DNA of 32,000 bases from Desulfatiglandales bacterium (GTDB taxonomy: Bacteria; Desulfobacterota; DSM-4660; Desulfatiglandales; Desulfatiglandaceae), in the NCBI GenBank assembly GCA_963666345.1, contig OY762721.1, positions 3,661,258-3,693,257 on the forward strand, given 5' to 3'. A program made the translations under genes and the position numbers. The notes below the pieces were generated by a model, which made no database searches, had not been told where the DNA came from, and was given only the letters and a program-made list of their open reading frames with translations. Positions within the stretch are counted from its first letter, which is position 1. Every line of letters starts with the position of its first letter. Below, in pieces: positions 9,311 to 24,079 of this stretch.

Positions 9311-10510
9311 ATGAACCGGATGAAGACCATAGCCGTGGTAGGCACCTTTGACTCGAAGGGGGAGGAGCATCTCTTTTTAAAGGAGCGGATAGAGAAAAGA
9401 GGCTTTTCAGCCCTCACCATAAACGTGGGCACAAAAGGACCCGGGACCTTCAAGGCGGATATCGATCTGTTCATCCGGCTTGAAAAAGTGGACGGGCTTG
9501 ACCATGAAAGCAGAGACAGAGCCATCGCAGCCATGCTTCAAAGGGCAAAGGAGCTTGTAAGACAACTCCATGAAAGAAAGGAAATCTGTGGAATAATCTC
9601 CGCCGGCGGGGGCACCGGCACGCATCTGGGCACCGGCATAATGAGGGCGGTTCCGATGGGTGTTCCCAAGGTAATGGTATCTACTGTGGCATCAAGGGAT
9701 ATGTCGAAGGTGGTGGGTACCAGGGATATCACCATGATGCACAGTGTGGCTGACCTTCTGGGGGTAAACAGCATATCAGGAGCCGTGCTTGACAGGGCCG
9801 CGGCCGCGGTCTGCGCAATGACGGGTAACGGCTGGAGTCCGGGGATTGAAAAGAAAAGGATCGCGCTCACGTTTTTCGGTTTTATCACTCCGGCGGCTGA
9901 AATGATAAAGGAGCGGCTTGAGCGGCTTGACTACGAGGTGATCGCCTTTCATGCCAACGGCACGGGCGGCATGGCAATGGAGGAGCTTGCGTCCGAAGGC
10001 TATTTCAGCGGCATTCTCGATCTTGGGACACATGAACTGGCCGATGAACTGAAAGGGGGATACTGCTCCGGCATAGGGCCTGAAAGGCTTGTCCTCCCGC
10101 CGGGCATTGTTTTGCCGAGGCTCGTGGTTCCGGGGGGTCTTGACTGCGCGGTCCTTGAGTTTACAAGAGAAAAGATCCCTGAAAAATACAGGGGCAGGAA
10201 GATATTTTTCTATGATTTCCGTTCGGCCGTCCGTTTGAATGAAAAGGAGAGTCTTTTCATTGCCGCGCAGCTTTCGGAAAAATTGAACAAGTCACCTGCC
10301 GGGACAAGGGTTCTTGTCCCCCTGGATGGATGGTCAGAGGCGGACAGGCAGGGAGGTCCTCTTTACGACCCGGCATTGAGTGGGCTTTTCCTTGATAGAT
10401 TGAAGCGGACCCTTGATCCTGAAATAGAGGTCATGGAGGTCGGGATGCATATTAATGATCCTGCGTTTGCGCGGCTTGCCGCCCGAATCATGCATAAGAT
10501 GATCGGATGA
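9311..10510 (+). CDS. UPF0261 / Tm-1-like ATP-binding domain protein, paralog 1
   Basis: Start set at ATG 9311, with GGGGAGG 5-10 nt upstream (MNRMKTIAVVGTFDSKGEE...). Central SAGGGTGTHLGT and VPKVMVST motifs are typical of the family. The ORF-track start at 9236 lies in the pseudogene flank. Confidence 0.7.
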   Translation: MNRMKTIAVVGTFDSKGEEHLFLKERIEKRGFSALTINVGTKGPGTFKADIDLFIRLEKVDGLDHESRDRAIAAMLQRAKELVRQLHERKEICGIISAGGGTGTHLGTGIMRAVPMGVPKVMVSTVASRDMSKVVGTRDITMMHSVADLLGVNSISGAVLDRAAAAVCAMTGNGWSPGIEKKRIALTFFGFITPAAEMIKERLERLDYEVIAFHANGTGGMAMEELASEGYFSGILDLGTHELADELKGGYCSGIGPERLVLPPGIVLPRLVVPGGLDCAVLEFTREKIPEKYRGRKIFFYDFRSAVRLNEKESLFIAAQLSEKLNKSPAGTRVLVPLDGWSEADRQGGPLYDPALSGLFLDRLKRTLDPEIEVMEVGMHINDPAFARLAARIMHKMIG

Positions 10511-10529
10511 TCGAACGGCGGCAGGCGAG

Positions 10530-11051
10530 TCAGGCATCATGCGCTTTCCCCTTGGATTTTAAGCCCTGTTTGAAACTTTCCCAGAACTCCTTGTCATTGT
10601 CCTGCCACGCAGCCCCGAATCTTCTTTCAAAATAGGATGAAGGCAGTTTCTCCTGCCATTTTCCCCAGGGGTCTTCCCCCTTTTTCTTGGCCTCGATAAT
10701 GTCATTTATAAAAGAGGCGATATCCGCGATCTCATCTTTCGGTATATAGGAGTCTGCACCCTGTTTTATCGATTTTACCAGGTTGTCGGGCGTAAACGCA
10801 TGGGCTGTGAGCATGACGGCCGTTGTGCCTTTACTGTTGCAGATTTCAAGAAGTCGGTAACCGTTGACCCCCATGATATCAAGCACTGCTACGTCGAATT
10901 CCTCTTTTTCAAGCAGTTCCCGCGCCTCCTCAAACGTGGAGGCACTGACCACGTCACACATGAATAAAAGTTCTTCCAGTACCTGCAGAATGTCAGGTTC
11001 ATCATCGACTATCAAGACCCTTTTACCGTCAAGCAAAGCGGTTTCAGACAT
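10530..11051 (-). CDS. Single-domain response regulator (CheY-like receiver) with about 50-aa Trp-rich C-terminal tail
   Basis: VDDEPD acidic pocket, VAVLDIMG phospho-acceptor Asp context, YIPKDE conserved Lys. No recognisable DNA-binding output. GGAGGA RBS. Confidence 0.8.
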   Translation of the reverse strand: MSETALLDGKRVLIVDDEPDILQVLEELLFMCDVVSASTFEEARELLEKEEFDVAVLDIMGVNGYRLLEICNSKGTTAVMLTAHAFTPDNLVKSIKQGADSYIPKDEIADIASFINDIIEAKKKGEDPWGKWQEKLPSSYFERRFGAAWQDNDKEFWESFKQGLKSKGKAHDA

Positions 11052-11196
11052 GAATTATCCTCCTTTTATAAAATGACGCCCGATCAGTAAACAGTCAAGC
11101 GGTCGACTCAAGAACCTATCACATGATCCGGGAATATTCCACTGAATAGATAAGCAGTCCCATGCCTGATCGTGGATGACGAACCTGTTGCCCGCC

Positions 11197-12144
11197 TTAC
11201 CTCCTTCTTGCAAGTATCCTGTTCATGAGCGCCCCTATCCCCTGGGGCGTCATGTCTTTCGGGGTCAGCTTGAGGAGTATGTCCACAAATGCCCGGGCCG
11301 CCATTGAAAGATACTGCCCCTCCAAAAAGGCGATGCTCACGTCAAGAAATATCCTGCCTCCTTCAAGGGGCACGGTTGAAAGGCTTTTCCCCTTGAGCTC
11401 AAGGGCGACCGCCTCCTTTACCAGAAAGGAGATCCCTTCTCCCCTTTGAACCAGCTGTTTGATAAATTCCGTGTTGCTGGTATCCATGAGTATGTCGGGT
11501 GTGCAGCCGTTTCGAGTGAAAAGCTCGTTTACCAGCCTCCTAGTGCCTGATCCGGTCTCCTTCATGATGACCGGCTCTCTGGCCAGATCCCTTATGGAGA
11601 CGGTCTTTTCTGCGGCCAGCGGGTGATCAGGTGCGAGTATCACGACCAGCTCTTCCTCGCTGAAGGGAATGAAACGGACATCGGGGTTTTCCTCCGCCTT
11701 GGCGATGATGGCCACTTCGTTTTTGAAGTCCAGCAGGCTGTGAATCATGTCAAGGGAGCTTCCCTCATCCAGGTAGATCCTAACCTGAGGGTAGGTTTCA
11801 TGAAAACCGGTAAGAAGATAAGGCATGAAGTAGCGGGCATAGGTCTTTGTCGTTCCAAGCCTCAGGACTCCCCTTTTGAGTTCCTTCATCTCCTCTATCA
11901 GGTGCTCAAGGTCCCTTTCATAATCAAATACCTTTACGGCGTATTCAAAAAGTGTCTTACCCTCGTCCGTAAGATATATGCTGCGGCCCTTTCTCTTAAA
12001 GAGCTTGAAGCTGCAGTGTTCTTCAAGGAGCCTTATCTGGGCGGTAACGGCCGGCTGGGTGATGTATAGACTTTTGGCTGCAAGGGTAAAACTGAGGTGC
12101 CTTGCTGTGTGGTAAAAGACCCTGAGTTGATTGAAATTGATCAT
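11197..12144 (-). CDS. LysR-type transcriptional regulator
   Basis: N-terminal wHTH (LRVFYHTARHLSFTLAAKSLYITQPAVTAQIRLLE) plus a substrate-binding domain, 315 aa. Divergent from the pps-like genes. Confidence 0.9.
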   Translation of the reverse strand: MINFNQLRVFYHTARHLSFTLAAKSLYITQPAVTAQIRLLEEHCSFKLFKRKGRSIYLTDEGKTLFEYAVKVFDYERDLEHLIEEMKELKRGVLRLGTTKTYARYFMPYLLTGFHETYPQVRIYLDEGSSLDMIHSLLDFKNEVAIIAKAEENPDVRFIPFSEEELVVILAPDHPLAAEKTVSIRDLAREPVIMKETGSGTRRLVNELFTRNGCTPDILMDTSNTEFIKQLVQRGEGISFLVKEAVALELKGKSLSTVPLEGGRIFLDVSIAFLEGQYLSMAARAFVDILLKLTPKDMTPQGIGALMNRILARRR

Positions 12145-12169
12145 GTGCCTGTCCTTTAAAAATAAAGCC

Positions 12170-12214
12170 TAAGCAAAATTTATGGATCAGGGTGATGCAT
12201 AAGTAAAATTTATG
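12170..12214. promoter_or_regulatory. Two copies of TAAG(C/T)AAAATTTATG spaced exactly 30 bp; candidate LysR boxes (ATAA-N7-TTAT fits T-N11-A)
   Basis: Read directly at 12170-12184 and 12200-12214, 26-70 bp upstream of the LysR gene start, on the divergent side. Confidence 0.45.
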
Positions 12215-12472
12215 TATATCATAAATATTATGAAGTTGACAGACACTTTTCAGTAATAAATTATAAGACTTATTTCCATAACAAGAACCTGGTACCGATC
12301 CCTCCACCAGTCCTGAGACCTTATCAAAAAGGATTCCTCATTAAGCGAAAACGCAGGTCGCTTCCTGAAAGCCTTATCTGAACGTGTTTTTTCTGTCCTG
12401 ACGTAACGGAATTCCCGGCTCTGTGGGCCTCAAAAAAACAGCAGTGCCTTAATGGAACGGGAAAAGTGAGCT

Positions 12473-12521
12473 GAAGTGACTAAAGTGACTAAAGTTGGAA
12501 GTGACTAAAGTGACTAAAGTT
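12473..12521. repeat. Tandem duplication of GAAGTGACTAAAGTGACTAAAGTT (period 25 bp), giving four GTGACTAAA 9-mers
   Basis: Read directly. 9-mers start at 12476, 12485, 12501 and 12510, in the 686-bp LysR/pps intergenic region. Confidence 0.8.
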
Positions 12522-12830
12522 ATGGAGTCGCTTCGCTCCGCTTTCTTAGAGGTTCCATAGCCCTTTGAATCTGGGTTTTTTAGGCATTGCAAAGTCCGGA
12601 AGAGCAGGGTGTTTATTTTTCCCGTCCAATTGCAGAATGCAGTTTTCCTTAAACGTAAGAACCGGAATCAAGAAAGATAAAAAGAAAAAAACAGGAAAGA
12701 GGAGCCCCTCCACCTGACCCCCCGGCCCCTCAAATCCCTGTCCCCTATTTAAGATTTATTTCCCCGGTTTGGGAGTGCATCGACGCTCCACGCAACCATT
12801 CCAACCAACAACATCACAGGAGGGGGAAAA

Positions 12831-14690
12831 ATGGCAGATCAAAAGGCAGGAAGATTTCCGGATCCTCACGATTTCAAGGTGCCTCCCGGCCTGGAGGGCT
12901 GGGAAGAGATGTATCCATCGCACTATCTTTTTTCAAAGGAGAGGGGGGAATGGGAAAAGCAGCAGTTCTGGTATCAGGACAAGATTCATGCCCCTGAACC
13001 GGTGCCCCCCCTGGACCTGATCTTCCAGGAGGCCTGGCAGATCTCCCTTTCACAGTACACCACAAGGGTGTTCTGCATCCCCCCTGCCCAGGGAATCGCC
13101 CAGAGGATGGTCGGGTGCTACATGTACATCTGTGCCATCGCGCCGCCGCCCGATAAGGTTATCGGAGAAAAGGCGGCCCATTTCGAAAAGCGCGTTTTCT
13201 ACGTGTTCGAGCACTATGACGAACTGTGGGACAAGTGGCTCAACAAATTCAAGGCCCTCGGCAACGAGATGTCCGCGGTTGAGATCCCGGAGCAGATGCC
13301 CAAATTCGTGCCTGAAGATCAGGTGCTTCCCGCGCCCAGGGGCTACTACATATCCTATGACGTGATGGAGGCATTCGACAGGCTCGTAAACATGATGTTC
13401 AAGGGATGGCAGTACCACTTCGAGATGCTTAACCTCACTTATCTTGCCTACCTCATGTTCGGCGACGTATCAAGAAAGCTCTTTCCGGGAATCAGCGAGA
13501 GTGCCATCGGCAAGATGGTGGCAGGCGCCTATGTGTCGATGTTCAGGCCGGAGGAGGAGCTGTGCAGACTCGCAAGGCTAGCCTCTTCATCCCGCGGCGT
13601 TGCGGATATTCTGAAGACCGATATGTCGGTAGGGCAGAAGGTCTCCAAGCTTAACAAGATAACCGACGGCAAACACTGGCTGGAGGAGTTTGAGAAATCA
13701 AAGGACCCCTGGTTCTACGTGTCCTGCGGAAGCGGGTGGCTGCATCATGAGGGAAGCTGGATTACCAACCTTGAAATACCCTACAGCTATATAAAGGGCT
13801 ATGTGGAAAGCCTTGAAAGGGGCGAGAAGATCGAGCGCTCCCTTGACCAGATAGACAAAGAAAGGGACCAGATAGTAGAAGAGTACCGCAAACTGATCAA
13901 AACCGATGAAGACCGAAAATCGTTTGACGACGCCTACAAGACCATCCGGACCATATACCGGTACGCGGAGGATCATCTGTTCTGGGTGGAGCACTGGTTT
14001 CACACCATCTGGTATGAAAAGATAAGGAGATTCGGAAGCCTTCTCAAAGGAAACGGAATGCTCAACGAGGTGGACGATATATTCATGTTCACCCGCTATG
14101 AGATCCCGGAGATGCTGACCGAGCTTTCCACCGGCTGGGCCCTGGGAGTGGACATACCTTTAAGGGGCGATTTTTACAAGGCAAAGGCAAAAAAGAGGAG
14201 GAAGATCCTGGATGCTGCATCCGAATGGGCACCCACCCCCGCGCTCGGCGTACCACCCGAGGAGGTGGCGGAACCCTTCACGATCATGCTCTGGGGCGTG
14301 ACGACCGATAAGGTAAAGGAATGGCTCAAGGGTGTGGAGGTCCCGAAAGGAACTGAGATCAGCGAGATAAAGGGATTTGCGGCTTCGGCAGGGGCCGCGG
14401 AAGGTCCGGCCAGGGTGCTCAAGCTCTTAAAGGAGATCGTCGACATAAAACCGGGTGAGATTATCGTGTGCCCGTCGACCAATCCCTCGTGGGCGCCGGT
14501 GTTTACCAAGATCAAGGCGGCTGTCACGGACATCGGCGGGCTTACAAGTCATGCGGCCATAGTCTGCCGGGAATACGGAGTACCATCGGTCACGGGAACG
14601 GGAGTGGCCACATCCGTGATTAAAACCGGAGACATAATCAGGGTCGACGGAGACACAGGGCTGGTAACCATAGTGAAGCGGGCGCAGTGA
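12831..14690 (+). CDS. PEP-utilising-enzyme family protein with C-terminal swivelling phospho-His domain; phenylphosphate synthase alpha-subunit-like
   Basis: 619 aa (about 70 kDa). C-terminus GGLTSHAAIVCREYGVPSVTG carries the conserved T-S-H motif. No PPDK_N ATP-grasp domain; that is encoded by the next gene. GGAGGGGG RBS. Size and split architecture match Thauera PpsA and PpsB (70 and 40 kDa). Confidence 0.65.
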   Translation: MADQKAGRFPDPHDFKVPPGLEGWEEMYPSHYLFSKERGEWEKQQFWYQDKIHAPEPVPPLDLIFQEAWQISLSQYTTRVFCIPPAQGIAQRMVGCYMYICAIAPPPDKVIGEKAAHFEKRVFYVFEHYDELWDKWLNKFKALGNEMSAVEIPEQMPKFVPEDQVLPAPRGYYISYDVMEAFDRLVNMMFKGWQYHFEMLNLTYLAYLMFGDVSRKLFPGISESAIGKMVAGAYVSMFRPEEELCRLARLASSSRGVADILKTDMSVGQKVSKLNKITDGKHWLEEFEKSKDPWFYVSCGSGWLHHEGSWITNLEIPYSYIKGYVESLERGEKIERSLDQIDKERDQIVEEYRKLIKTDEDRKSFDDAYKTIRTIYRYAEDHLFWVEHWFHTIWYEKIRRFGSLLKGNGMLNEVDDIFMFTRYEIPEMLTELSTGWALGVDIPLRGDFYKAKAKKRRKILDAASEWAPTPALGVPPEEVAEPFTIMLWGVTTDKVKEWLKGVEVPKGTEISEIKGFAASAGAAEGPARVLKLLKEIVDIKPGEIIVCPSTNPSWAPVFTKIKAAVTDIGGLTSHAAIVCREYGVPSVTGTGVATSVIKTGDIIRVDGDTGLVTIVKRAQ

Positions 14691-14778
14691 TACGAATTTA
14701 ACCGGAAAGCCCCTTTCCCATTCAGGTCACTTTTTCGCTTCCTGTCTGTTGAAAGGGGCTTCTAGGTGAAAAGAGATC

Positions 14779-15849
14779 ATGGAACATATACTCGGTTTTG
14801 AAAGACTTGACAGGGGTTCCCTCGCCCTTGTGGGGGGAAAGAACGCGAGCCTGGGTGAGATGATAAAAAGCGGGGTCCGCGTGCCTCCCGGTTTTGCCGT
14901 TACAACCGACAGTTATCTTGGTTTTATAACAAAGACCGGTATAAAGGAGAAGATCTATGAGGCCCTCGCAGGTCTTGATCCTGAGGATGTGGAATCGCTC
15001 GACCGGGCAAGCGGCAAGGCGCGCGGGCTTATCATGGATTCATCCATGACAAGGGAGGGGAGGGATGCAATCGCAGGCGGTTATAAAACACTGTGCCGGG
15101 ATTGCAATAAAGATTACCTGCCTGTGGCGGTCAGATCAAGCGCAACGGCCGAGGACCTCCCGACCGCCAGTTTCGCCGGCCAGCAGGATACATTCCTCTG
15201 GGTCCTTGGGGCGGATAAGGTCATAGGCAATGTCCAGGCCTGCTGGGCAAGCCTGTTTACCCCCCGTGCCGTCAGCTACAGGATTAGGAACAAGTTTTCC
15301 CATGAAAAGGTACTCATAAGCGTCGGTGTCCAGAAGATGGTCAATTCGAGGAGCGCCGGTGTCATGTTTACCCTCAATCCGACCAACGGGGACCCTTCAA
15401 AGGTGGTCATAGAGGCAAGCTGGGGGCTGGGCGAGACGGTTGTTTCAGGTTCGGTTAATCCGGACAAGTTCGTGGTGGACAAGGTGATGCTGGAGATCAA
15501 TGAAAGGGACATATCCAAAAAGCATATAGAATGCCTGTATGACCCGGATGAAAAAAAGGTGGTCAACATCGAGGTGGAGCCGGAAAGACAGCAGAAATGC
15601 TGCCTGGAGGGCCGTGAGGTAAGGGAACTGGCCAGACTGGCAAAGGAAATAGAGGTCCATTACGGATGCCCCATGGACATCGAGTGGGCCATAGAAGAAG
15701 ACGCGTCCTTTCCCGAGAACATATTTATCGTTCAGGCACGGCCCGAGACCGTCTGGAGCCGGAAGGAGTCAAAGCCCGTCATAGGGGCGAAGAGCGGCTA
15801 TCAGCTTTTGATGGAAAAGGCGATGACAAGGATAAAGCTGAGGACATGA
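14779..15849 (+). CDS. PEP synthase N-terminal (ATP-grasp, PPDK_N) domain protein; phenylphosphate synthase beta-subunit-like
   Basis: 356 aa (about 40 kDa). GGKNASLGEM and VAVRSSATAEDLPTASFAGQQDTFL motifs of pyruvate-phosphate-dikinase/PEP-synthase nucleotide-binding domains. Confidence 0.7.
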   Translation: MEHILGFERLDRGSLALVGGKNASLGEMIKSGVRVPPGFAVTTDSYLGFITKTGIKEKIYEALAGLDPEDVESLDRASGKARGLIMDSSMTREGRDAIAGGYKTLCRDCNKDYLPVAVRSSATAEDLPTASFAGQQDTFLWVLGADKVIGNVQACWASLFTPRAVSYRIRNKFSHEKVLISVGVQKMVNSRSAGVMFTLNPTNGDPSKVVIEASWGLGETVVSGSVNPDKFVVDKVMLEINERDISKKHIECLYDPDEKKVVNIEVEPERQQKCCLEGREVRELARLAKEIEVHYGCPMDIEWAIEEDASFPENIFIVQARPETVWSRKESKPVIGAKSGYQLLMEKAMTRIKLRT

Positions 15850-16063
15850 ATGAGATAAAATCCCCTTGTCCGATTAAGCTGGAGAAGAACCTTTTCAATA
15901 ATCCGGCATTCAGGGAAAACCAGGATAGAAGGATTTTGCATTTAAGGGTCATCTCCAAAAGAGTTGATTTAAATGAAGGAGTCTTTGCTCTTCTTATTCC
16001 TCGCTCAGTCCCACCCTTCGACAAGCTCAGGGCGGGTTCCCGGAAGGGGCCAAGGGTTCTAGG

Positions 16064-16273
16064 TATGGGAGGAAAACGAGTATAGAGTATGTGAGATTTC
16101 TCTATATTGCATATGGTTCAGTCTGTGAATCGGAAATTCGGGCCATGATATCAGCTGAATTGGGTTATTTGAAAGAAGTAAGGCTTCAGGAATTAAGGGG
16201 GAAAATCGGGGATGTCGAGACAATGCTCAAAGCGTTGATCAAATCCCCGGAAAGAAAACCCTCGAATCCTTGA
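16064..16273 (+). pseudogene. 5'-truncated four-helix-bundle protein gene fragment (C-terminal about 70 codons only)
   Basis: YGRKTSIEYVRFLYIAYGSVCESEIRAMISAELGYL... is homologous to codons 55 onward of the 8701..9102 gene. Upstream, homology is replaced by an 18-nt terminal-repeat-like sequence (16046-16063). Confidence 0.7.
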
Positions 16274-16321
16274 CTCCTGGAACCCTTGGACCCTTTCTCC
16301 CAACTAATTGGGAGAAGAACC
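16064..16321. repeat. Right arm of about 250-bp inverted repeat (pairs with 8691-8940)
   Basis: Same hand alignment as the left arm. The arm carries an 8-nt insertion (TTGACTCC) relative to the left arm. Confidence 0.85.
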
Positions 16322-16359
16322 GCATTTTTAACCGGCAGAAAGGGAGGTAAACAGGATCG

Positions 16360-17760
16360 ATGAAAGACATGAGAGATTTTATCCAAGAGGCGGAAGCCCG
16401 GGGCCTGCTCCACAGGATAAAGGCCGAGGTGGACTGGAACCTTGAGCTGTCCCATATCGCAAAACTTAACGAGGAAAACCAGGGACCGGCACTGCTTTTC
16501 GAAAACGTCAAGGATTACGACTCCCCAGTCATCACGAGCGTGTGCACCACCACCGAAAGACTTGCCCTCATAATGGGCATGCCGGGGGAATCGTCCTTGG
16601 TGGACATCATGAGGATGTGGGTGGAGAAAAATGAAGACAGGATTCCCCCCAGATATGTGGACAATGCGCCGTGCAAGGAAAACATCATGATGGGTGATGA
16701 TGTGGATCTTTTCAGGTTTCCCGCGCCCAAGTTTTATCCGATGGACGGCGGGCGTTTTTTCGGTACCGCCCATTTCGTGGTCACAAAAGACCCTGATACC
16801 GGGTGGGTCAACCTTGGCACATACAGGCTCCAGCTCCTGGACAAAAATCATCTCGGAACCCAGTTCATAAAGGGAAAGCATGCGGATATCATGCTCAAGA
16901 AATACCAGAAGCTGAAGGAGCCGATGCCTGTTGCGGTAGTGGTGGGATGCGACCCGATACTCTTTCTGATGGGGGCCTCAAGGCTCTCGGCCTTTGAAAG
17001 TGAATATGATTTCGCAGGCTCCATAAGGGGTGAGGCAATAGATGTAATAAAGGCTGAGACAAACGACCTGCCGGTTCCGGCCACGGCCGAGATCGTGGTG
17101 GAAGGGGAGGTGGACGCGGACACATTCATGGACGAAGGCCCGTTCGGCGAGTACACAGGCTACTATTCAGGTGTGGGGACCGACCCGAGAAATTTCATAG
17201 ACGTAAAGTGCGTGACCCACAGGACAAATCCCGTGTTCTGGTCCACCACGGTGGGACGCGCGGTGACGGACACCCACATGACCATGGCGCTTACCTACGG
17301 CGCGACCCTGTGGCAGCAGCTTGTCGCCATGAAAATCCCCGGCATAAAGGCGGTCTACTGCCCGCCCGAGGGCTCGGGACGCTTTCTTGCCATAATTTCC
17401 ATGACCCAGATGTATCCGGGACACGCGGATCAGGTCCTTACCGCCGCCATATCGACCGAGATGGGCGCCTACGGCCTCAAGACCGTTATCGTGGTGGATG
17501 ATGATATCGACCCGTGGGATATATCAAGGGTCATGTATGCGCTCAGCTTCAGGTTTCAGCCTAACAGGAGTCAGGTAATAAAAAGAGGGAGGTCCACCCC
17601 GCTTGATCCTTCTCTTCCCTTAAACGCAAGGGAGATCACAGGCAGGCTCCTGCTGGACGCCACCATACCGTATGACTGGAAGGAAAAGCCGATCCCTATT
17701 GAGCTTGATCCGGAGCTGGTGGAAAAGATAAAGGGCCGATGGTCTGAACTGGGGTTTTAG
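16360..17760 (+). CDS. UbiD-family prFMN-dependent (de)carboxylase
   Basis: 466 aa. N-terminus MKDMRDFIQEAEARGLLHRIKAEVDWNLELSHI...GPALLFENVKDY is typical of UbiD-family enzymes. GGGAGG RBS. Size matches the phenylphosphate carboxylase alpha/beta-type subunits. Confidence 0.85.
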   Translation: MKDMRDFIQEAEARGLLHRIKAEVDWNLELSHIAKLNEENQGPALLFENVKDYDSPVITSVCTTTERLALIMGMPGESSLVDIMRMWVEKNEDRIPPRYVDNAPCKENIMMGDDVDLFRFPAPKFYPMDGGRFFGTAHFVVTKDPDTGWVNLGTYRLQLLDKNHLGTQFIKGKHADIMLKKYQKLKEPMPVAVVVGCDPILFLMGASRLSAFESEYDFAGSIRGEAIDVIKAETNDLPVPATAEIVVEGEVDADTFMDEGPFGEYTGYYSGVGTDPRNFIDVKCVTHRTNPVFWSTTVGRAVTDTHMTMALTYGATLWQQLVAMKIPGIKAVYCPPEGSGRFLAIISMTQMYPGHADQVLTAAISTEMGAYGLKTVIVVDDDIDPWDISRVMYALSFRFQPNRSQVIKRGRSTPLDPSLPLNAREITGRLLLDATIPYDWKEKPIPIELDPELVEKIKGRWSELGF

Positions 17761-17777
17761 ACAGGGGGAGAATCGAT

Positions 17778-19439
17778 ATGAAGCCTATCCGCTATGATCC
17801 GGAAGAGATAGAGAAAAATTTGAGGGAGGGTTTCTGGGATAAGACCATCCTGCCCGACTTTTGGGAGAAAAACGCCAGGCTGTGGCCTGACAGGGAGGCC
17901 CTTGTCGATTCCCTCGGATCCAGGCTGACCTGGGCCGAGGCCGCGCAGAGGATCGACAGGATCGCGTTCGGGCTTATAAAGGAGGCGGGTGTTAAGAGGG
18001 ATGACAGGCTCATGGTGCAGCTTCCTAACTGCGTGGAGCAGGTCCTTGTTCGCCTTGCCTGTGAAAAGGCGGGGGTCCTTTCCATACCCGAGATGACCAC
18101 CTTCAGGCAGACGGAGCTTGCGGACATCGCAAAAAGGACGGACGCGGCGGGCATGGTAATTGCCAGGAGCTACAGAAACTTCGACCACCATGAAATGGCA
18201 AGGGAACTTCAGGCTCAGCTGCCGGGACTCAGGCACATCATAGTGGCGGGGGACGACGTGCCTCAAGGCTGCATCTCGTTGAACGAGATCATGGCTCACC
18301 CATATGAGAAGGAGTTCGACATCCTGGAGCTTATCGCCAGGAAGCTTGACGCGGTGGAAGAGGTGGGCTTTCTTATCACGACCACCGGCACCACAGGCCT
18401 TCCGAAGCTTATCGAGCACAGGATAGCGGCGCGCGAGATCTGGACCGCAAGATCGCATGTGAAAAACTGGAAGCTCGGCCCTGATGACTGCGTGATCGCC
18501 ATCGCCCCGCTCGCAGGGGCCGCCGGGGGCACGCCCGCCTATGTTACGGCACCGGTGGGGGGAGCCAAAATCGCCCTTGAATACCAGTACAGGGGAGAGG
18601 AAACGCTCGCCTTCATGGAACAGGAGCGGGTCACGGTGATCGCCCTTGTGCCGACCCAGCTCGCAAGGCTGCTGGAACTTCCCACCGGCAAATATGACCT
18701 TTCATCTTTAAGGATAATAAAGACCGCCGGAGGGTACCTGCCGCCCCCGCTTGCAAAGGAGGCCCAGGAGAGGTTCAACTGCCCCATCCTCGGGACATAC
18801 GGCACGCAGGATACAGGTTCCATATCAGGGGTGCCGATCGACGCACCCGAGGACCTGAGAAACTTCACCGTTGGAAGGCTTCATCCGGGAATAGAGATAA
18901 AGATACTGGATGATGAGGGAAACCGGGTTGAAAAAGGGGGCGTGGGCACCCTATGGTTCAAGGGGCCGGGAAATTCGATCGGTTATTACAGGGATATAGA
19001 TAAAACCATGAACGAGGCCTTTGACAGGGACGGTTTTGCCACGCCCGGAGACCTTGTGGAGCTTATGGATGACGGTTATATCAAGATCATGGGCAGGAAG
19101 AAGAACATCATCATAAGGGGCGGGCAGAACATATATCCAAGGGAGATAGAGGACTATCTGCTGGCGCACGAAAAGGTCACTAACGCGGCCGTCGTTCCCA
19201 TGCCTGATCCTCAGATGGGTGAGAGGGCGTGCGCCTTTGTCACGGTCAAAAAGGGAGAGATGTTCCAATTCGAGGAGATGATCGCATATCTCAAGGAAAA
19301 GAAGATCGCTCCCTTTAAGCTGCCTGAAAGGCTCGAGGTACTCGACGCCCTTCCCCTGGTCGGGGAAAGCGGCAAGATAAACAACAAGGAAATGGTCAGG
19401 ATCATAACCGAGAAGCTTAAGGAGGAGGGGAAGATCTAA
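17778..19439 (+). CDS. AMP-binding acyl/aryl-CoA ligase (adenylate-forming enzyme)
   Basis: 553 aa with the ITTTGTTGLPKL AMP-binding motif and GDLV...GRKKNIIIRGGQNIYPREIE. 18 nt after the UbiD stop, with a GGGGGAG RBS. Confidence 0.85.
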   Translation: MKPIRYDPEEIEKNLREGFWDKTILPDFWEKNARLWPDREALVDSLGSRLTWAEAAQRIDRIAFGLIKEAGVKRDDRLMVQLPNCVEQVLVRLACEKAGVLSIPEMTTFRQTELADIAKRTDAAGMVIARSYRNFDHHEMARELQAQLPGLRHIIVAGDDVPQGCISLNEIMAHPYEKEFDILELIARKLDAVEEVGFLITTTGTTGLPKLIEHRIAAREIWTARSHVKNWKLGPDDCVIAIAPLAGAAGGTPAYVTAPVGGAKIALEYQYRGEETLAFMEQERVTVIALVPTQLARLLELPTGKYDLSSLRIIKTAGGYLPPPLAKEAQERFNCPILGTYGTQDTGSISGVPIDAPEDLRNFTVGRLHPGIEIKILDDEGNRVEKGGVGTLWFKGPGNSIGYYRDIDKTMNEAFDRDGFATPGDLVELMDDGYIKIMGRKKNIIIRGGQNIYPREIEDYLLAHEKVTNAAVVPMPDPQMGERACAFVTVKKGEMFQFEEMIAYLKEKKIAPFKLPERLEVLDALPLVGESGKINNKEMVRIITEKLKEEGKI

Positions 19440-19655
19440 CGGCCTCCCCGGTTCGGGAATATAGCCGTGGTGTAGGGTTATATGTTATAGGTTATTTGAA
19501 AATGAGTGAACAGAAGCCTTGTCTTCGGCTGCGTACTCTAGTTTTCCGGCAATCTTTCTAACCAATAACGAACAACCAGATGCCTAACCAGTGTGCCATT
19601 TTAAGGAAACGTGGGCAAACGAGTGGTTGCTCCATGCCAGGAAGGAATCCCCCCC

Positions 19656-20252
19656 ATGACCCATGACGGCAAAAGGCCCCTGATCCTCTTTGTATGCTGC
19701 GGAAACAGGGAAAGGAGCGTGATAGCGGAAAACCTTTTTAAAAAGATGCTGAAAAAGGGATATCCTGATTTATCAGACCGGGTGGATGCGGCCTCAGCCG
19801 GCATATTCCCCAGGTCATATTTAGAGCATGCAGGGGAAAACGGGGTCTTTTTCGAAGAACCTTTTTTTTCAAAAAAGGCCAATACCTATGCCGTGGATTA
19901 CCTCCTGAAAAAGGGGATAGACGTAGCATCATACAGGTCAAGGCGGATTAACTCAGGTCTTGTCACAGATGCCCTTCTCATACTTGCCGTAGATCGGGTG
20001 ATAAGGGATGAGATCCTTTTCTTTTATCCGGAGGTCCAAGGCAGGGTCCATACCCTCAGGGAGTTCGTGTTCGGCCCGGAAGGGGACCTCGATATAGGTG
20101 ATCCCATGAAACTGCCCGTTGTTGATAAGGACACCGGCGCCTGGATATGGCCTGACGAATACCCCGTGAGGTATATAAAGGAGATCGAGGAGAGCCTTGA
20201 AAAGGGAATGGTCAAGATAGTGGCTTACATAATGAGCGAGGGGATGGATTAG
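19656..20252 (+). CDS. Low-molecular-weight protein-tyrosine-phosphatase-like (LMW-PTP/ArsC fold) protein with internal insertion and C-terminal extension
   Basis: P-loop LILFVCCGNRERS fits V-C-x-G-N-x-x-R-S (CX5R-S). A DIGDP Asp-Pro loop is present. The only two Cys are in the P-loop, so there is no ArsC-type redox Cys pair. Start set at ATG 19656 (AGGAAGG upstream); the GTG at 19611 is possible. Confidence 0.65.
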   Translation: MTHDGKRPLILFVCCGNRERSVIAENLFKKMLKKGYPDLSDRVDAASAGIFPRSYLEHAGENGVFFEEPFFSKKANTYAVDYLLKKGIDVASYRSRRINSGLVTDALLILAVDRVIRDEILFFYPEVQGRVHTLREFVFGPEGDLDIGDPMKLPVVDKDTGAWIWPDEYPVRYIKEIEESLEKGMVKIVAYIMSEGMD

Positions 20253-20253
20253 A

Positions 20254-21492
20254 TTGAATAGAACAAAGGGTGCGATCATAGTTCTGGTAATGGCTGAGGA
20301 AAAATGGGTGGAGGCGAATTTTTTCCGTGCTCAAATTACCTCTCTCGGCCACAGGGCCGAGATCCTTGATATGGGCCTTACCGGAGGGCCTGCCGGGCCC
20401 TGCGCTATCGGACGGGAGGAGGTGATAGCGGCAGGCGGCACAGGCGTGGACGAGGCCTCTCTTATAACGGACAGGGGCAAGAGGATGCCCCTTATGATAA
20501 AGGGGGGGAGAAAAAAGGTAAAAGAGCTTTACGAACAGGGAATGCTCACAGGGGTCGTGAGCCTTGGGGGGACCACGGGGACCCAGATGGGGACCTCCAT
20601 CATGAAGGCGCTTCCATTCGGCGTTCCCAAGCTCGCGGTGTCAAGCACGGCATCGCTTAAGGGGTTCGCCTCAAGATACCTCGGTACATCGGATGTCTCG
20701 CTCATGCACACGGTGGTCGAGATCGCGGGGCTTAACCGGTTCATGAAAAACGCGCTTGCACGCGCGGCAGGGGCCGTGTGCGGCATGGTGGAGGGGGGGC
20801 TCAGGGAGCCTGTCGCGCCGGAACAGGGGGGTGTGAGTCCGGTTGTAGCCATGACCCACTTCGGGCCGTGCGAACATTGCGCGGTAAGGGTTCGAAATCT
20901 ACTTGAGGAGCGCGGTTACCAGGTGGTGGGTTTTTCCGCTGCCGGTATCGGGGATCGGGCCATGGAGGAGATAATCGAATCGGGCGGCGTCTTTTCTGCG
21001 GTCATAGATCTTGCCACGGGCGGGGTGGGTGAGGAACTGCTGGGATTTGCCAGGGCAGCGGGGGCCTCAAGGCTTGAGGCGGCGGGAAAAAAGGGGATAC
21101 CGCAGGTGATTGCCACAAGCGGGGTCAATTTCGGCTCCCCCTGGAAGTACAGGTACAAGCCTGAATATGAGTCAAGAAAAAAAATTGAGTATGACAGAGC
21201 CCGCACCTTTATAAGGCTCTCGCAAGACGAGTTGGTCCGGGTGGCGACCGTCATGGCGGAAAAGTTGAACCGCGCAGCGGGTCCGGTGAGGGTGGTAATC
21301 CCGCTTGGCGGGTGGTCATCCGTTGATAAGAAGGGAAGCTTCTTTTATGATGGTGAGGCGGATCAGGTATTTGTCGAGACGCTGGAAAGGGAATTGCGGG
21401 ACGATATCGAGGTCAGGGAAGTGGACGCGGACCTTGAGACGGATGAATTCGCAAAGGTTATCGTGGATTCGTTTCTGGAAATTATTTCGTAG
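20254..21492 (+). CDS. UPF0261 / Tm-1-like ATP-binding domain protein, paralog 2 (divergent N-terminal motif)
   Basis: 412 aa. Central SLGGTTGTQMGT and VPKLAVSST align with paralog 1. The N-terminal GTFDSKGEE of paralog 1 is replaced by VMAEEKWVE. The TTG start at 20254 is 1 nt after the upstream stop and is uncertain. Confidence 0.65.
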   Translation: MNRTKGAIIVLVMAEEKWVEANFFRAQITSLGHRAEILDMGLTGGPAGPCAIGREEVIAAGGTGVDEASLITDRGKRMPLMIKGGRKKVKELYEQGMLTGVVSLGGTTGTQMGTSIMKALPFGVPKLAVSSTASLKGFASRYLGTSDVSLMHTVVEIAGLNRFMKNALARAAGAVCGMVEGGLREPVAPEQGGVSPVVAMTHFGPCEHCAVRVRNLLEERGYQVVGFSAAGIGDRAMEEIIESGGVFSAVIDLATGGVGEELLGFARAAGASRLEAAGKKGIPQVIATSGVNFGSPWKYRYKPEYESRKKIEYDRARTFIRLSQDELVRVATVMAEKLNRAAGPVRVVIPLGGWSSVDKKGSFFYDGEADQVFVETLERELRDDIEVREVDADLETDEFAKVIVDSFLEIIS

Positions 21493-21537
21493 AGAGAATC
21501 AGGTGCCGGTTGCCTGATAAACGCGCGGGGGCCTTAC

Positions 21538-21921
21538 ATGGAATACAGGTTCATGACGCATGAGGGGTGCTATGATCTTGTGGCGAACGCAAGACTGGTG
21601 GGAGACGATCTGCTGGTTGCCATATGGGGCGGAGACAGGCCCCATATCGGCGCTGTATCCATGGCCCAGCCCAGGGCAAGCCTCAGGGACCCTTCAAAGC
21701 TGAGTGCTACTGCTTCCGTGTTCACGTATGTGGGGCACAAGGAGGACATTCTCGCAAAACCCGCTTCAGAGACCCTGGCCTCCGCCCTGAACAAGAAGGT
21801 GGTGGTAACGGCAGGTATCCACTGGGATGATATGGAAGAAAAGGGCATTAAAAGGGTGATAAAAAACTGTGAGATTCTGATCGGGATGATTGTAAAGGAG
21901 TTTTCATCTTCAAAAAGCTGA
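21538..21921 (+). CDS. Small UbiD/UbiX-associated protein, possibly LpdD-like prenylated-flavin chaperone
   Basis: 127 aa, WGGDRPHIGAVSMAQP motif. Sits immediately upstream of ubiX. The family assignment comes from memory of LpdD-type proteins and from context only. Confidence 0.35.
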   Translation: MEYRFMTHEGCYDLVANARLVGDDLLVAIWGGDRPHIGAVSMAQPRASLRDPSKLSATASVFTYVGHKEDILAKPASETLASALNKKVVVTAGIHWDDMEEKGIKRVIKNCEILIGMIVKEFSSSKS

Positions 21922-21950
21922 CTCTGTCAGGCGTGGGGGATGGTTCTAAA

Positions 21951-22523
21951 ATGAAAAAAAGACTCATTATCGCGATAACCGGCGCAAGCGGTGTGATTTA
22001 CGGTGTGAGGATGCTCGAACTGATAAGGGAACACGGCTTTGAGACGCATCTTATAATATCAGAGGCGGGCAAGAAGAATATCGAGATCGAGACAGGCTTT
22101 AAGCTCAGGGATATAAAGGCGCTTGCCGATTACAGCCATGAAAACATGGACGTGGGGGCCCCGCTTGCAAGCGGCTCGTTTCTGACGGGGGGTATGGTGG
22201 TGGTGCCCTGTACCATCAAGACCCTGTCAGGGATTACCAATTCCTACAACGACAACCTGATCGTGAGGGCGGCAGACGTCACGTTAAAGGAGGGGCGCAA
22301 GCTGGTGCTGGTTGTAAGGGAGACCCCTCTTCACAAGGGGCATCTGAGACTCATGACCATGGCGGCCGATGTGGGCGCCCACATACTTCCCCCGGTCCCA
22401 TCCTTTTATAACAAGCCTGAAACCATCGACGACATAATCAATCAGACCATAGGAAAGATCTTCGACTACCTGGGCGTGGAGCACGATCTGTTTGCCCGCT
22501 GGGGAAGATATGACTCATGCTGA
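21951..22523 (+). CDS. ubiX: UbiX-family flavin prenyltransferase
   Basis: MKKRLIIAITGASGVIYGVRMLE... and VVPCTIKTLSGI motifs. About 190 aa. Start set at ATG 21951, with GGGGGA 11 nt upstream. Confidence 0.9.
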   Translation: MKKRLIIAITGASGVIYGVRMLELIREHGFETHLIISEAGKKNIEIETGFKLRDIKALADYSHENMDVGAPLASGSFLTGGMVVVPCTIKTLSGITNSYNDNLIVRAADVTLKEGRKLVLVVRETPLHKGHLRLMTMAADVGAHILPPVPSFYNKPETIDDIINQTIGKIFDYLGVEHDLFARWGRYDSC

Positions 22524-22537
22524 ATAAATGCTGATAG

Positions 22538-22849
22538 TCATAAAAACAGACTTGCAATGGATGGGACCCGCTCGGCAATTTTGACCGCTATTTGACCGAG
22601 CTTTTCTATCTGCGCCTTGAGTTGTGCCTGAGACAGGTTGACCCTTGAGGCCTCCTTTACAACGGTGATGAGTTCATCATATTTTTCAAGGTCCGTGGTA
22701 TCCGGCGTGATTGTGTCCACCTCGGCACGCGAGAGACCTTCCAGTTCGTTAAGCTGATCCTTGTATATCCCCTTAAATACCTCCCGTCCCTTTTCAAGGG
22801 TTTCTTCAAGGTCCGCCTCAAATCCTTCAAGATCAAAATCATCCGACAT
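22538..22849 (-). CDS. Hypothetical small acidic protein
   Basis: 103 aa, Asp/Glu-rich N-terminus. Starts 3 nt after the stop of the upstream gene 22853..23602, implying co-transcription. No recognisable motif. Confidence 0.5.
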   Translation of the reverse strand: MSDDFDLEGFEADLEETLEKGREVFKGIYKDQLNELEGLSRAEVDTITPDTTDLEKYDELITVVKEASRVNLSQAQLKAQIEKLGQIAVKIAERVPSIASLFL

Positions 22850-22852
22850 CTC

Positions 22853-23602
22853 TTATCCCTCCTTATTGCCTTTGCCGATATTATCCTTAAGTTCGTTTAT
22901 TGCCGACTTTAGATCAATGGCAAACTCCTCCGCCTTTTTGATCTTGTCATCGGCCTTCTCGGCCGTCTCAACAAGGGTTCCGATCCTCTCGGATGCCCGG
23001 GCCAGCGTGTCGCCGATATCCTTTCCGAGGTCTCGTTCAACCCCGATCTTATCCAGCAGTTCTGCCTGTGTCTCATGCACCTTTGCAACAGAGGAAAGAT
23101 GACCGGTCACAATCGAATTGGCATAATGAATCTGCTGGTAGGCCCGGTCTATGGAGCCTGTCACCTCTTTTTCCTGCGCCTTGAGCGGGTCGAGCAGCTC
23201 ACTGCGCATCGCCTCCACATCTTGTCTGATCTTGCCCACCATTATAGCCATGCCCTTTAGGACATTTTCCTGAAGTTTCGGGGAGGCATCCGGCTTGAAT
23301 GCAGCGTTTATCGCAAGAAGTAGAGACCTCTTCCTTTCCTTTTCCTTCGAACTTCTTGCCAGTTCCCACTGGCGGTTCATGGCGTTTCCGATCTGAAAGG
23401 GTGCGTAAACGTCGTCTATGAAGCGGTTCACGTCACGCCTCATCCTTGTGAAAAATAACTGTGCAAGCTCTCGATGTGCCTTGTAAACCACCGTAAGGTC
23501 CCGGCCGACCGTTGCTGAAAGCTCAACCGACTCCTTGGGAACCTGGGCGCATGAGCAGAAAATGAGGAAGGATATAAAAATGAATATCGACCTGCGTGGC
23601 AT
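22853..23602 (-). CDS. Hypothetical exported or lipoprotein-like coiled-coil protein
   Basis: 249 aa. N-terminal hydrophobic signal (MPRRSIFIFISFLIFCSCAQ) with a non-canonical Cys-containing end. The rest is helical and charged. GGAGG RBS. Confidence 0.55.
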   Translation of the reverse strand: MPRRSIFIFISFLIFCSCAQVPKESVELSATVGRDLTVVYKAHRELAQLFFTRMRRDVNRFIDDVYAPFQIGNAMNRQWELARSSKEKERKRSLLLAINAAFKPDASPKLQENVLKGMAIMVGKIRQDVEAMRSELLDPLKAQEKEVTGSIDRAYQQIHYANSIVTGHLSSVAKVHETQAELLDKIGVERDLGKDIGDTLARASERIGTLVETAEKADDKIKKAEEFAIDLKSAINELKDNIGKGNKEG

Positions 23603-23668
23603 CTCAATTCCTCCTTTTGTGGTGCTTCAAAAGTTGTGTTCAACTGTTAGGCATGATCGGGTAAAATC

Positions 23669-24079
23669 CTATTTGTGCGCGAATGCCCATGAAAAAGAGA
23701 TGCCGAATTCTTCCTTTCCGCCCACCCTGACCGCCGTTAGAAAGGCGGAGGCCAACCACTTTTTCATGCCCGCCTTGGTGACAAGGTCGCTGTAGAACTT
23801 GGCGTCCACACGCTTTTTTTCAGGGTCATTGCCCGGGTCCCCGTAGGCGTAACAGAGGTCATGGGGCAGGCAGCATTTATAGGTGATATCCTTCCAGTCA
23901 CAGCCGGTAAAAAGACCCATTACCCTGTCGGGAAGCATGGAGCAGCCATCAAAGGTCCAGTCTTTGTAGTCGTCCGGTTTCGATTCGATCCTGTCAACCA
24001 GGTAATCGAGATCAAAATGGCGGCACAGCTCAAGTGCCGCGCGAGCGTTCATGACCTCTCCTATTTCAGGCAGATCCAT
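23669..24079 (-). CDS. Phospholipase A2-like protein (CCxxHDxCY motif)
   Basis: 136 aa. YKCCLPHDLCYAYG matches the secreted-PLA2 catalytic His-Asp signature CCxxHDxCY. An upstream FDGCSMLPD could be a Ca-loop analogue. No signal peptide is seen. The assignment is motif-level only. Confidence 0.45.
   Translation of the reverse strand: MDLPEIGEVMNARAALELCRHFDLDYLVDRIESKPDDYKDWTFDGCSMLPDRVMGLFTGCDWKDITYKCCLPHDLCYAYGDPGNDPEKKRVDAKFYSDLVTKAGMKKWLASAFLTAVRVGGKEEFGISFSWAFAHK

Follow-up and report, generated by a model that had tools for sequence, protein, structure and literature searches.

A probable phenol-activating gene cluster of strict-anaerobe type, with a single PpcB-type UbiD and conserved UPF0261 genes, in a Desulfatiglandales bacterium

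The biochemistry of anaerobic phenol carboxylation has been worked out only for denitrifiers, which use a four-subunit enzyme. How an enzyme with ppcB only works, and how sulfate reducers, iron reducers and syntrophs afford its ATP cost, are questions on which the present locus bears. It lies within a stretch of 32,000 nucleotides of a Desulfatiglandales bacterium (GenBank assembly GCA_963666345.1, contig OY762721.1, positions 3,661,258 to 3,693,257), hereafter called the window. Between positions 12831 and 22523, eight open reading frames (ORFs), all on the + strand, encode a PpsA-like and a PpsB-like protein, a UbiD, an aryl-acid ligase, a low-molecular-weight protein tyrosine phosphatase (LMW-PTP), a UPF0261 protein, an LpdD-like protein and UbiX. 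A sequence-only reading of this DNA had proposed that they convert an aryl-OH or aryl-NH2 compound to aryl-phosphate, aryl-carboxylate and aryl-CoA, and that the combination may be an undescribed variant of aromatic carboxylation. Pfam and NCBIfam assign each ORF unambiguously to the family, position and strand given at that time; only the starts of the LMW-PTP gene (19656) and of ubiX (21951) had to be corrected, from gene callers on identical metagenomic contigs. Our analysis indicates that the region from 9.3 to 22.5 kb is probably a LysR-controlled catabolic cluster of strict-anaerobe (Desulfobacterota) type, which would activate phenol or a very close phenolic analogue.

The first evidence comes from the synthase and carboxylase genes. 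The canonical reference was the annotated pps-ppc cluster of Azoarcus sp. KH32C, found by tblastn of plasmids (plasmid pAZKH, locus L086), in which the order is ppsA, ppsB, a CBS protein gene (ppsC), ppcB, ppcD, ppcA, ppcG, a third UbiD gene, ubiX, and genes for DUF120, NUDIX and PaaK-like ligase proteins. The PpsA-like protein (12831..14690, +; 619 aa) scores 861 bits against NF006153 (cut-off 578) and is 42.5% identical to KH32C PpsA across 614 of its 619 aa. Its sole Pfam domain is a C-terminal PEP-utilizers domain (PF00391; residues 539-610; E=6e-25), and its histidine motif GGLTSHAAIV is intact and aligns with rifampin phosphotransferase and phosphoenolpyruvate (PEP) synthase. The PpsB-like protein encoded beside it (14779..15849, +; 356 aa; PPDK_N E=1e-118) is 50.7% identical to Azoarcus PpsB. 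The pair sides with phenylphosphate synthase and not with bona fide PEP synthases or antibiotic phosphotransferases. The UbiD protein (16360..17760, +; 466 aa; UbiD_N, UbiD and UbiD_C domains) passes the TIGR02724 phenyl_P_beta model (502 bits, cut-off 469) and stays below the cut-offs of TIGR02723 phenyl_P_alpha (213, cut-off 565) and NF041204 VdcC (333, cut-off 650). It is 47.6% identical to Azoarcus PpcB, 32.9% to PpcA and 28.6% to the third UbiD, and carries the motifs EGPFGEYTGYY and NLGTYR. In a neighbour-joining tree, the method used for all trees, it falls with its relatives within the PpcB clade, PpcA being outside. It belongs neither to the aryl-CoA decarboxylases (phthaloyl-CoA decarboxylase gives only a remote match of 53 bits) nor to ubiquinone UbiD (E. 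coli UbiD, 225 bits), two placements that the sequence-only reading had named as fatal to its proposal. More than 120 homolog clusters (90% identity clusters), mostly from metagenome-assembled genomes of Desulfobacterota, lie at 83-89% identity and are often labelled phenylphosphate carboxylase subunit beta by their sources. Identical proteins are encoded on 11 contigs. The benzene degraders ORM2a and BzS1 were considered as possible hosts and discarded, both being reported to lack pps/ppc or prFMN carboxylase genes.

The other canonical subunits were looked for by tblastn with the annotated KH32C proteins (threshold E<0.1), gene coverage being that of the 32-kb window, and in related loci, namely the best 80 of 276 relatives (78-88% identity), with one genome per species. 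The window contains a single UbiD gene. PpcA (alpha) gives no match in the window and, in the 80 related loci, matches the PpcB-type gene only (33-35% identity). The 10-kDa PpcG (gamma) has no significant match in the window or in the 80 loci, nor has the 18-kDa HAD-type PpcD (delta) any match in either. The CBS protein PpsC (about 24 kDa) has no match in the window and is present in 2 of the 80 related loci (L040 and L083). Hence, the claim of a single UbiD paralog without gamma, delta or third synthase protein is borne out for the window; a PpsC-like gene may lie elsewhere in the genome, as may a PpcD-like phosphatase or genes for 4-hydroxybenzoyl-CoA reductase (4-HBCR). Small ORFs in the 510-bp gap between ppsB and the UbiD gene were considered as a hidden gamma or delta subunit and rejected, since the gap contains a degenerate copy of another gene (see below) and gives no PpcG match. 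Some related loci (L039, L040, L068, L075 and L083) combine this highly conserved UbiD of PpcB type with another type of PpsA; in L040, L068 and L075, that PpsA has 64-69% identity to its Azoarcus counterpart and just 42-44% to the one of the window. CBS-type PpsC is limited to two of these loci, L040 and L083.

The gene neighbourhood is conserved. Counts for each gene were obtained by crude ORF calling and tblastn, and were restricted to loci whose flanking sequence was long enough. The consensus order is LysR (- strand), then PpsA, PpsB, UbiD, (receiver), (EntE-like ligase), UPF0261, (HD hydrolase), LpdD and UbiX, the brackets marking genes that are not constant. PpsB lies upstream of UbiD in 57 of 63 loci, PpsA is found in 41 of 45 and a LysR gene upstream of ppsA in 30 of 32. 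Downstream of UbiD, a UPF0261 gene is found in 31 of 33 loci, ubiX in at least 22 of 28 and a ligase in 35 of 48. LpdD is detectable by tblastn in 25 of the 80 loci. A receiver gene is located downstream on the same strand in 31 of 69 loci and anywhere in 40 of 80, usually directly after the UbiD gene. Furthermore, a molybdenum-hydroxylase trio of 4-HBCR type follows ubiX in about six related loci, and several others have genes for a BamB-like aldehyde:ferredoxin oxidoreductase (AOR) and Fe-S proteins near the cluster. These nearby genes place the cluster family in the anaerobic benzoyl-CoA pathway. The proposed sequence from aryl-OH to aryl-CoA therefore fits the homology to Azoarcus, the PpcB equivalog match, the synteny and the 4-HBCR- and BamB-like genes of relatives. 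Of the two accessory neighbours whose lack of conservation would have spoken against the sequence-only reading, UPF0261 is conserved across species-level loci (31/33) and the LMW-PTP is not (1/39). The range 12831-22523 stands as far as it goes, but it missed three conserved genes upstream, since the cluster also includes a second UPF0261 gene, a receiver gene and a LysR gene. New in this analysis are the UPF0261 gene after UbiD in 31 of 33 loci, the three conserved upstream genes, the subfamily and module to which the LMW-PTP belongs, and the assignment of LpdD and UbiX to cofactor supply (see below).

Two small genes at the end of the cluster concern the cofactor of the carboxylase. The LpdD-like protein (21538..21921, +; 127 aa) matches PF21758 (E=1e-35), a family named PAC_bac in one copy of Pfam and LpdD_chaperone in another, and also matches the Lactiplantibacillus plantarum LpdD structures 8pzh, 8p4w and 8po5, with which it has the motif GGxxPHIG in common. 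LpdD is a chaperone that binds reduced prenylated flavin mononucleotide (prFMNH2; PMC10865409). The flavin prenyltransferase UbiX (21951..22523, ORF from 21933, +; 190 aa; Flavoprotein E=7e-42; NF004685 255 bits, cut-off 188) is 53.6% identical to Azoarcus UbiX. LpdD and UbiX thus supply the cofactor, and neither substitutes for a carboxylase subunit. The suggestion that uncharacterised families sit in place of the canonical subunits is consequently not supported: LpdD is a known chaperone, UbiX makes the cofactor and the UPF0261 family has a described activity in the aromatic kinase MarK (see below). Between UbiD and these genes, an EntE-like aryl-acid adenylating enzyme or aryl-CoA ligase is encoded (17778..19439, +; 553 aa; AMP-binding and AMP-binding_C). 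Its best NCBIfam matches, to medium-chain, cyclohexanecarboxylate and 2,3-dihydroxybenzoate ligases, are all below cut-off, and more than 120 metagenomic clusters encode homologs at 76-84% identity.

From homology and gene context, we infer the following mechanism. PpsB would transfer a diphosphoryl group from ATP onto the conserved histidine of PpsA, which would convert aryl-OH and ATP to aryl-phosphate, AMP and Pi. The single PpcB-type UbiD would then add a carboxyl group at the ring position para to the oxygen while the phosphate is lost; its prFMN would come from UbiX, with LpdD as the delivering chaperone. Finally, the EntE-like ligase would convert the hydroxybenzoate to its CoA thioester and thereby pull the unfavourable carboxylation forward. 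UbiD, UbiX and LpdD are also the gene types of gallate and hydroxybenzoate decarboxylase systems, so that the carboxylase could instead be a VdcBCD/LpdBCD-like non-oxidative hydroxyarylic acid decarboxylase working in the decarboxylating direction beside an unrelated PEP-synthase-like pair. This is extremely improbable: the VdcC score is 333 against a cut-off of 650 when the PpcB equivalog is passed, no VdcD-like small-subunit ORF was called between or after the cluster genes, PpsB and PpsA are adjacent in 57 of 63 and 41 of 45 loci, and an aryl-CoA ligase lies downstream, with 4-HBCR genes too in relatives.

The same set of enzymes could also act on aniline, with PpsAB as phenylphosphoamidate synthase, UbiD yielding 4-aminobenzoate and the ligase yielding 4-aminobenzoyl-CoA. 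This is the route of the ani cluster of Desulfatiglans anilini, where a split dikinase and a PpcB-type UbiD are likewise found together with an acyl-CoA synthetase (549 aa). Moreover, YwlE, the nearest solved relative of the LMW-PTP, cleaves P-N bonds, and a nitrilase-family gene lies within the same island. However, an identity of only 28% to Thauera PpsA is reported for the aniline-pathway protein PasA, whereas the window PpsA reaches 42.5% with Azoarcus PpsA, and the phenol PpsA of D. anilini is, like that of the window, 42% identical to betaproteobacterial PpsA. The genes run PpsA, PpsB, UbiD, ligase in the window but PasB, x, ligase, PasA, PpcB in ani. Furthermore, UPF0261, ubiX and receiver genes are reported for the phenol (phe) cluster of D. 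anilini; for ani, no UPF0261 entry turned up in the supplement of PMC7500099, and gene 03873 is absent from the text searched. The nitrilase gene has no conserved counterpart in related loci. Aniline is thus a most unlikely substrate, and of the two options offered by the sequence-only reading, aryl-OH is retained and aryl-NH2 disfavoured.

The most constant accessory genes encode UPF0261 proteins. The first catalytic activity of this family was published in 2025 for MarK (Saro_1862) of Novosphingobium, an ATP-to-ADP kinase of phenolic ketones and aldehydes with an ATP loop (D14, T15, K16) and a phenol pocket (G195, H219, H304), which is interchangeable with the PpsAB-like dikinases AcvAB and HpeHI in the acetovanillone pathway (PMC12624787). 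The window encodes two such proteins. The upstream one (9320..10510, +; a-type) has both the N- and C-terminal UPF0261 Pfam domains, passes NF002674 (364 bits, cut-off 335) and matches the MarK structure 9mpy (E=4e-43) as well as Tm-1; its ORF is open from 9236, and the gene callers start it at 9320. At the MarK positions it has D, S, K, G, H and Y, and a-type proteins in general keep D, S/T, K, G and H, an aromatic Tyr standing in place of H304. Seventeen loci have an ortholog (60-64% identity), placed either upstream of LysR or behind the receiver gene. It is therefore a candidate MarK-like aromatic kinase, and might, as a weaker part of the proposal, act as an ATP-to-ADP phenol kinase that is cheaper than PpsAB and parallel to it. 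The downstream one (20254..21492, +; b-type) also has both Pfam domains and matches the Tm-1 and MarK structures, which places it in the same fold family; it is divergent, with E, E, K, G, S and Y at the MarK positions, and b-type genes always follow an EntE-like ligase gene. Other loci have further types. The c-type follows ligase A and keeps DTK, position 219 being mostly Ser, whereas a-, d- and e-types keep the phenol-binding His. In a variant without EntE-like ligase (L021, L025, L034, L035, L042, L047, L051, L053, L054, L062, L081 and L082), a d-type gene (LDERE loop; D, E, R, with His kept) directly follows UbiD, sometimes with a PaaK-like ligase next. Whatever the ligase type, at least one UPF0261 gene lies between UbiD and LpdD/UbiX in every well-covered cluster. 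No paper mentioning UPF0261 together with UbiD was found in the literature searched.

The receiver and LysR genes complete the upstream part of the cluster. The receiver gene (10530..11051, -) encodes a stand-alone CheY-like protein of 173 aa (Response_reg E=1e-13), in which the acidic pair, phospho-acceptor Asp, Thr and Lys of CheY are present, as they are throughout 41 family members. It ends in a conserved extension of 55 aa with the strong signature PWxxWxxxLPxSYFExRWGAAWQDxDKEFW. This extension is restricted to one small family (39 matches among 1.84 billion representatives), and a Rosetta-stone search of the same 1.84 billion representatives found no fusion of it. The cluster encodes no histidine kinase. 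In D. anilini, the receiver 02050 reaches an enzyme-like abundance, about the level of PpsA and PpsB in the column where PpcB peaks (PMC7500099). More tentatively than the core steps, we propose that the receiver could be a stoichiometric phospho-acceptor partner of the synthase or the carboxylase. The divergent LysR-family regulator (11197..12144, -; HTH_1 and LysR_substrate) is separated from ppsA by a 686-bp intergenic region with a promoter-like match at 12236-12264 (+), which is a consensus match only. Rfam and tRNA scans of the window found nothing.

Unlike UPF0261, the LMW-PTP is found in few related clusters. Classical LMW-PTPs hydrolyse aryl phosphates via a Cys-phosphate intermediate. 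The protein of the window (19656..20252, +; 198 aa; LMWPc E=6e-15; ORF from 19611) has about 125 homolog clusters, and the P-loop of its subfamily is unusual, being VCCGNRERS instead of CxGNxCRS with Glu replacing the canonical second Cys. This P-loop (Cys-X5-Arg-Ser) is invariant in 33 homologs, most of which also keep the acid motif DIGDP, and the subfamily is about 45 residues longer than classical LMW-PTPs. The AlphaFold model (pLDDT 89.6) has YwlE arginine phosphatase, TT1001 and Wzb as top PDB matches (target-normalised TM-scores about 0.8); among solved proteins, YwlE is nearest and classical LMW-PTPs come after it. Each of the four contexts sampled has the gene behind a clade-B ligase (76-79% identity), with a b-type UPF0261 gene (64-68% identity) next in three of them; two of the three adjoin PpcB-type UbiDs only 53-58% identical to that of the window. 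In the window, its stop codon lies 1 nt before the start codon of the b-type UPF0261 gene. Since the ligase, LMW-PTP and b-type UPF0261 genes recur together, they form a portable module, and the sequence data indicate that the LMW-PTP is a dedicated subfamily, rare across species yet not a stray gene. A second kind of phosphohydrolase is recruited to the same position in other loci. A 200-aa HD-domain phosphohydrolase gene lies between UPF0261 and LpdD in L007, L050, L060, L066, L076 and L087 (the contig of L007 stopping inside it), and an HD-domain protein is counted in 5 of the 30 loci with enough flanking sequence. The idea that the HD protein and the LMW-PTP are mutually exclusive analogues is weakened by L087, which has both.

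The portable module bears on the identity of the substrate. Two ligase clades occur: clade B in the window and seven loci (about 80% identity), and clade A in the majority (about 45% identity to the window). The cluster might apply identical chemistry to a substituted phenol (cresol, catechol, hydroquinone, aminophenol or halophenol) instead of phenol itself, the ligase-B/LMW-PTP/UPF0261b set being an adaptation to a substituted hydroxybenzoate. This would account for a ligase clade distant from the one adjacent to 4-HBCR genes, for a module that also occurs beside more divergent PpcB-type UbiDs, and for a window without 4-HBCR genes. However, PpsA (78-85%) and UbiD (80-88%) are nearly the same in the loci with ligase A and 4-HBCR; because of this, the enzymes that determine the substrate do not differ between the cluster types. 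In addition, L015 and L043 have ligase B in the ligase A slot of an otherwise complete cluster. We consequently regard a substituted phenol as a possible but distinctly less probable substrate than phenol itself or a very close analogue.

What the accessory proteins do can be viewed in two ways. The first concerns the cofactor: both UPF0261 proteins, the LMW-PTP and the HD phosphohydrolase of relatives may supply or mature prFMN under anoxia, for instance through dimethylallyl phosphate (DMAP) or FMN, together with LpdD and UbiX. UPF0261, HD and LpdD genes are almost always contiguous with ubiX, and Azoarcus has instead DUF120 and NUDIX genes beside ubiX, plausibly FMN and DMAP supply genes, both of which the Desulfobacterota loci largely lack. 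Moreover, the b- and c-types are without the phenol-binding His of MarK, and prFMN helper proteins (LpdD, PhdC and YclD) were found only recently. In contrast, phenol phosphorylation is the sole demonstrated activity of UPF0261, the phenol-binding His is retained in the a-, d- and e-types, and the LMW-PTP travels with the ligase and not with ubiX, which is not found nearby in L089, L091 and L092. Furthermore, UPF0261 of D. anilini is about 60-fold more abundant than UbiX, which would be unusual for a cofactor-supply enzyme. Cofactor supply is thus a serious rival, although we judge it rather unlikely.

The second way concerns the phosphoryl group. UPF0261b and the LMW-PTP could handle the aryl-phosphate or the phosphoryl group at the carboxylase or ligase step, and might thereby do the job of the HAD-type delta subunit of denitrifiers; these steps are proposed with less confidence than those of the core. 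In its most general form, this would mean that, in strict anaerobes, a homomeric PpcB-type UbiD, a UPF0261 protein of the MarK family that binds the aryl-phosphate, a CheY-like Asp phospho-acceptor and, in one lineage, a dedicated LMW-PTP replace the alpha, gamma and HAD-type delta subunits and PpsC, the phosphoryl group being possibly re-routed via an ATP-to-ADP kinase or phosphorelay instead of being just hydrolysed. We offer this general form as a speculative proposal whose chances are modest. If it is true, such re-routing would lower the cost of about 4 ATP that puzzles the field for sulfate reducers.

Several observations weigh against the assignment of the cluster to phenol activation and against the roles proposed above. 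The b-type UPF0261 has E, E, K at D14, T15, K16 and Ser at H219 in 9 of 9 members. The LMW-PTP cannot be an essential subunit, since most related clusters lack it. No 4-HBCR genes are found in the 32-kb window, and the ligases that adjoin such genes are of clade A, with which clade B has an identity of only about 45%; the acid product of a clade-B cluster may, on sequence grounds, be a different one. A second UbiD paralog may lie elsewhere in the genome; D. anilini has UbiD paralogs and its in vitro aniline system required two. Extracts of D. anilini never yielded phenylphosphate carboxylase activity (PMC6114531). Finally, the comparison with D. anilini rests on annotation, size, gene order and a similar identity to betaproteobacterial PpsA (42% for both).

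The cluster lies in a G+C-rich island (about 7600-25500; G+C 0.50-0.58 versus 0.39-0.45 in the flanks), which points to its horizontal acquisition. Two inverted 260-bp repeats (8691-8942 and 16062-16321) are 88.8% identical. The first is a gene for a 70-aa 23S rRNA intervening-sequence protein (IVP; four-helix bundle) on the - strand, and the second a degenerate IVP copy within the unusually long 510-bp spacer between ppsB and the UbiD gene. A 99.5% identical copy of the locus from another metagenome (L002) matches the window only from position 8710, which lies within the IVP element, towards the right; left of this point it has other genes. This suggests rearrangement or mobility at the IVP repeat. 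Two sets of island genes were considered as members of the cluster and rejected, not being conserved in related loci. One is the nitrilase-family (CN_hydrolase) gene at the left edge (7635-8585, -; Nit6803-like, below cut-off). The other is a run of four consecutive hypothetical genes (22538-25531, -; 103, 249, 136 and 408 aa), absent from all related loci, with no NCBIfam match and only sub-threshold Pfam matches (AAA_13 and phospholipase A2); the 249-aa protein starts with a lipoprotein-like signal. A toxin-antitoxin pair (PIN toxin, PhdYeFM antitoxin) is encoded shortly beyond the right edge of the island (26096-26754, +). The low-G+C left flank (891-5445) carries genes for a TctC, TctB, TctA tripartite tricarboxylate transporter and then a sulfatase, after which come short-chain dehydrogenase/reductase (SDR) and 3-hydroxyacyl-CoA dehydrogenase genes.

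This locus and its roughly 80 relatives yield concrete conserved candidates, namely UPF0261, a receiver with intact phospho-acceptor residues, LpdD, and the LMW-PTP and HD phosphohydrolases, with which the carboxylase mechanism of strict anaerobes becomes testable. They also tie the aromatic-kinase activity of UPF0261 to anaerobic ring carboxylation, a link not found in the literature searched. Moreover, the production of active UbiD-type carboxylases, with the aim of fixing CO2 onto aromatic compounds, may depend on such helper genes.

The phe cluster of D. anilini DSM 4660 (H567DRAFT_02049-02059; PMC6114531, PMC7500099) matches the window almost gene for gene in type and size. Both have a split PpsA (615 aa versus 619 in the window) and PpsB (358 versus 356), one PpcB-type UbiD (468 versus 466) immediately followed by an EntE-like ligase (552 versus 553) and UPF0261 (403 versus 412), ubiX (193 aa in phe) and a receiver-only CheY-like protein (175 versus 173). 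In the supplementary proteome table (PMC7500099), these are 02059 (ppcB, 468 aa), 02058 ('2,3-dihydroxybenzoate-AMP ligase', 552 aa, which the window ligase matches in size and annotation class), 02057 ('UPF0261 family', 403 aa), 02056 (ubiX, 193 aa) and 02050 (CheY-like receiver, 175 aa). The phenol-induced cluster contains only ppsA, ppsB and ppcB of the canonical genes; a gamma homolog is missing from the genome, and alpha-, delta- and ppsC-like genes lie outside the phenol cluster, G. metallireducens being alike (PMC6114531). Here, as in the window, gamma is missing and alpha, delta and PpsC are not in the cluster. Hence, the beta-only layout is already described, and the locus is not an undescribed variant as had been suggested: phe already has the UPF0261, EntE-like ligase, ubiX and CheY-like genes, which the authors of the D. 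anilini work drew as uncharacterised and without interpretation.

In the D. anilini proteome, the CheY-like, UbiX, UPF0261 and EntE-like ligase proteins all peak in the column of PpcB (PMC7500099), which we infer from the text of that paper on PpcB, reported as most abundant on phenol, to be the phenol condition. Peak-column areas are 1.8e10 for PpcB, 1.26e10 for ligase 02058, 7.4e9 for PpsA, 6.0e9 for the receiver, 4.0e9 for PpsB, 2.5e9 for UPF0261 (0 to 5e7 in other columns), 5.8e8 for the PaaK-like ligase 02049 and 3.9e7 for UbiX (PMC7500099). Extracts of this bacterium make phenylphosphate from phenol. Unlike phe, the window has a second UPF0261 gene, an LMW-PTP gene, an LpdD gene and a LysR-type regulator, whereas phe has 4-HBCR subunits and a PaaK-like ligase inside the cluster and a different gene order.

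With Thauera aromatica and Azoarcus, the window shares PpsA, PpsB, PpcB and UbiX (42.5%, 50.7%, 47.6% and 53.6% identity, values for KH32C, with full-length homology in each case) and, with Azoarcus, the order ppsA, ppsB, ppcB. It differs from Azoarcus in having no PpsC, PpcA, PpcG or HAD-type PpcD and no DUF120 or NUDIX beside ubiX, in an EntE-like ligase that replaces the PaaK-like one, in the presence of UPF0261, receiver, LpdD and LMW-PTP, and in a LysR regulator instead of sigma-54. The acetovanillone pathway (PMC12624787) follows a similar logic of phosphorylating the phenol, carboxylating, removing the phosphate and ligating CoA, with the AcvAB/HpeHI dikinase or MarK acting first, then the carboxylase and then the phosphatase AcvF/HpeD. 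Its carboxylase is, however, biotin-dependent and acts on the acetyl side chain, whereas the window has a prFMN UbiD predicted to act on the ring, and a phosphatase of LMW-PTP fold. Finally, the LpdBCD/VdcBCD decarboxylases (PMC10865409) share with the window the trio of UbiD, UbiX and LpdD, including the GGxxPHIG motif of LpdD. In contrast to theirs, the UbiD of the window is of PpcB type and not VdcC/LpdC and, being coupled to a dikinase and a CoA ligase, presumably works in the carboxylating direction.

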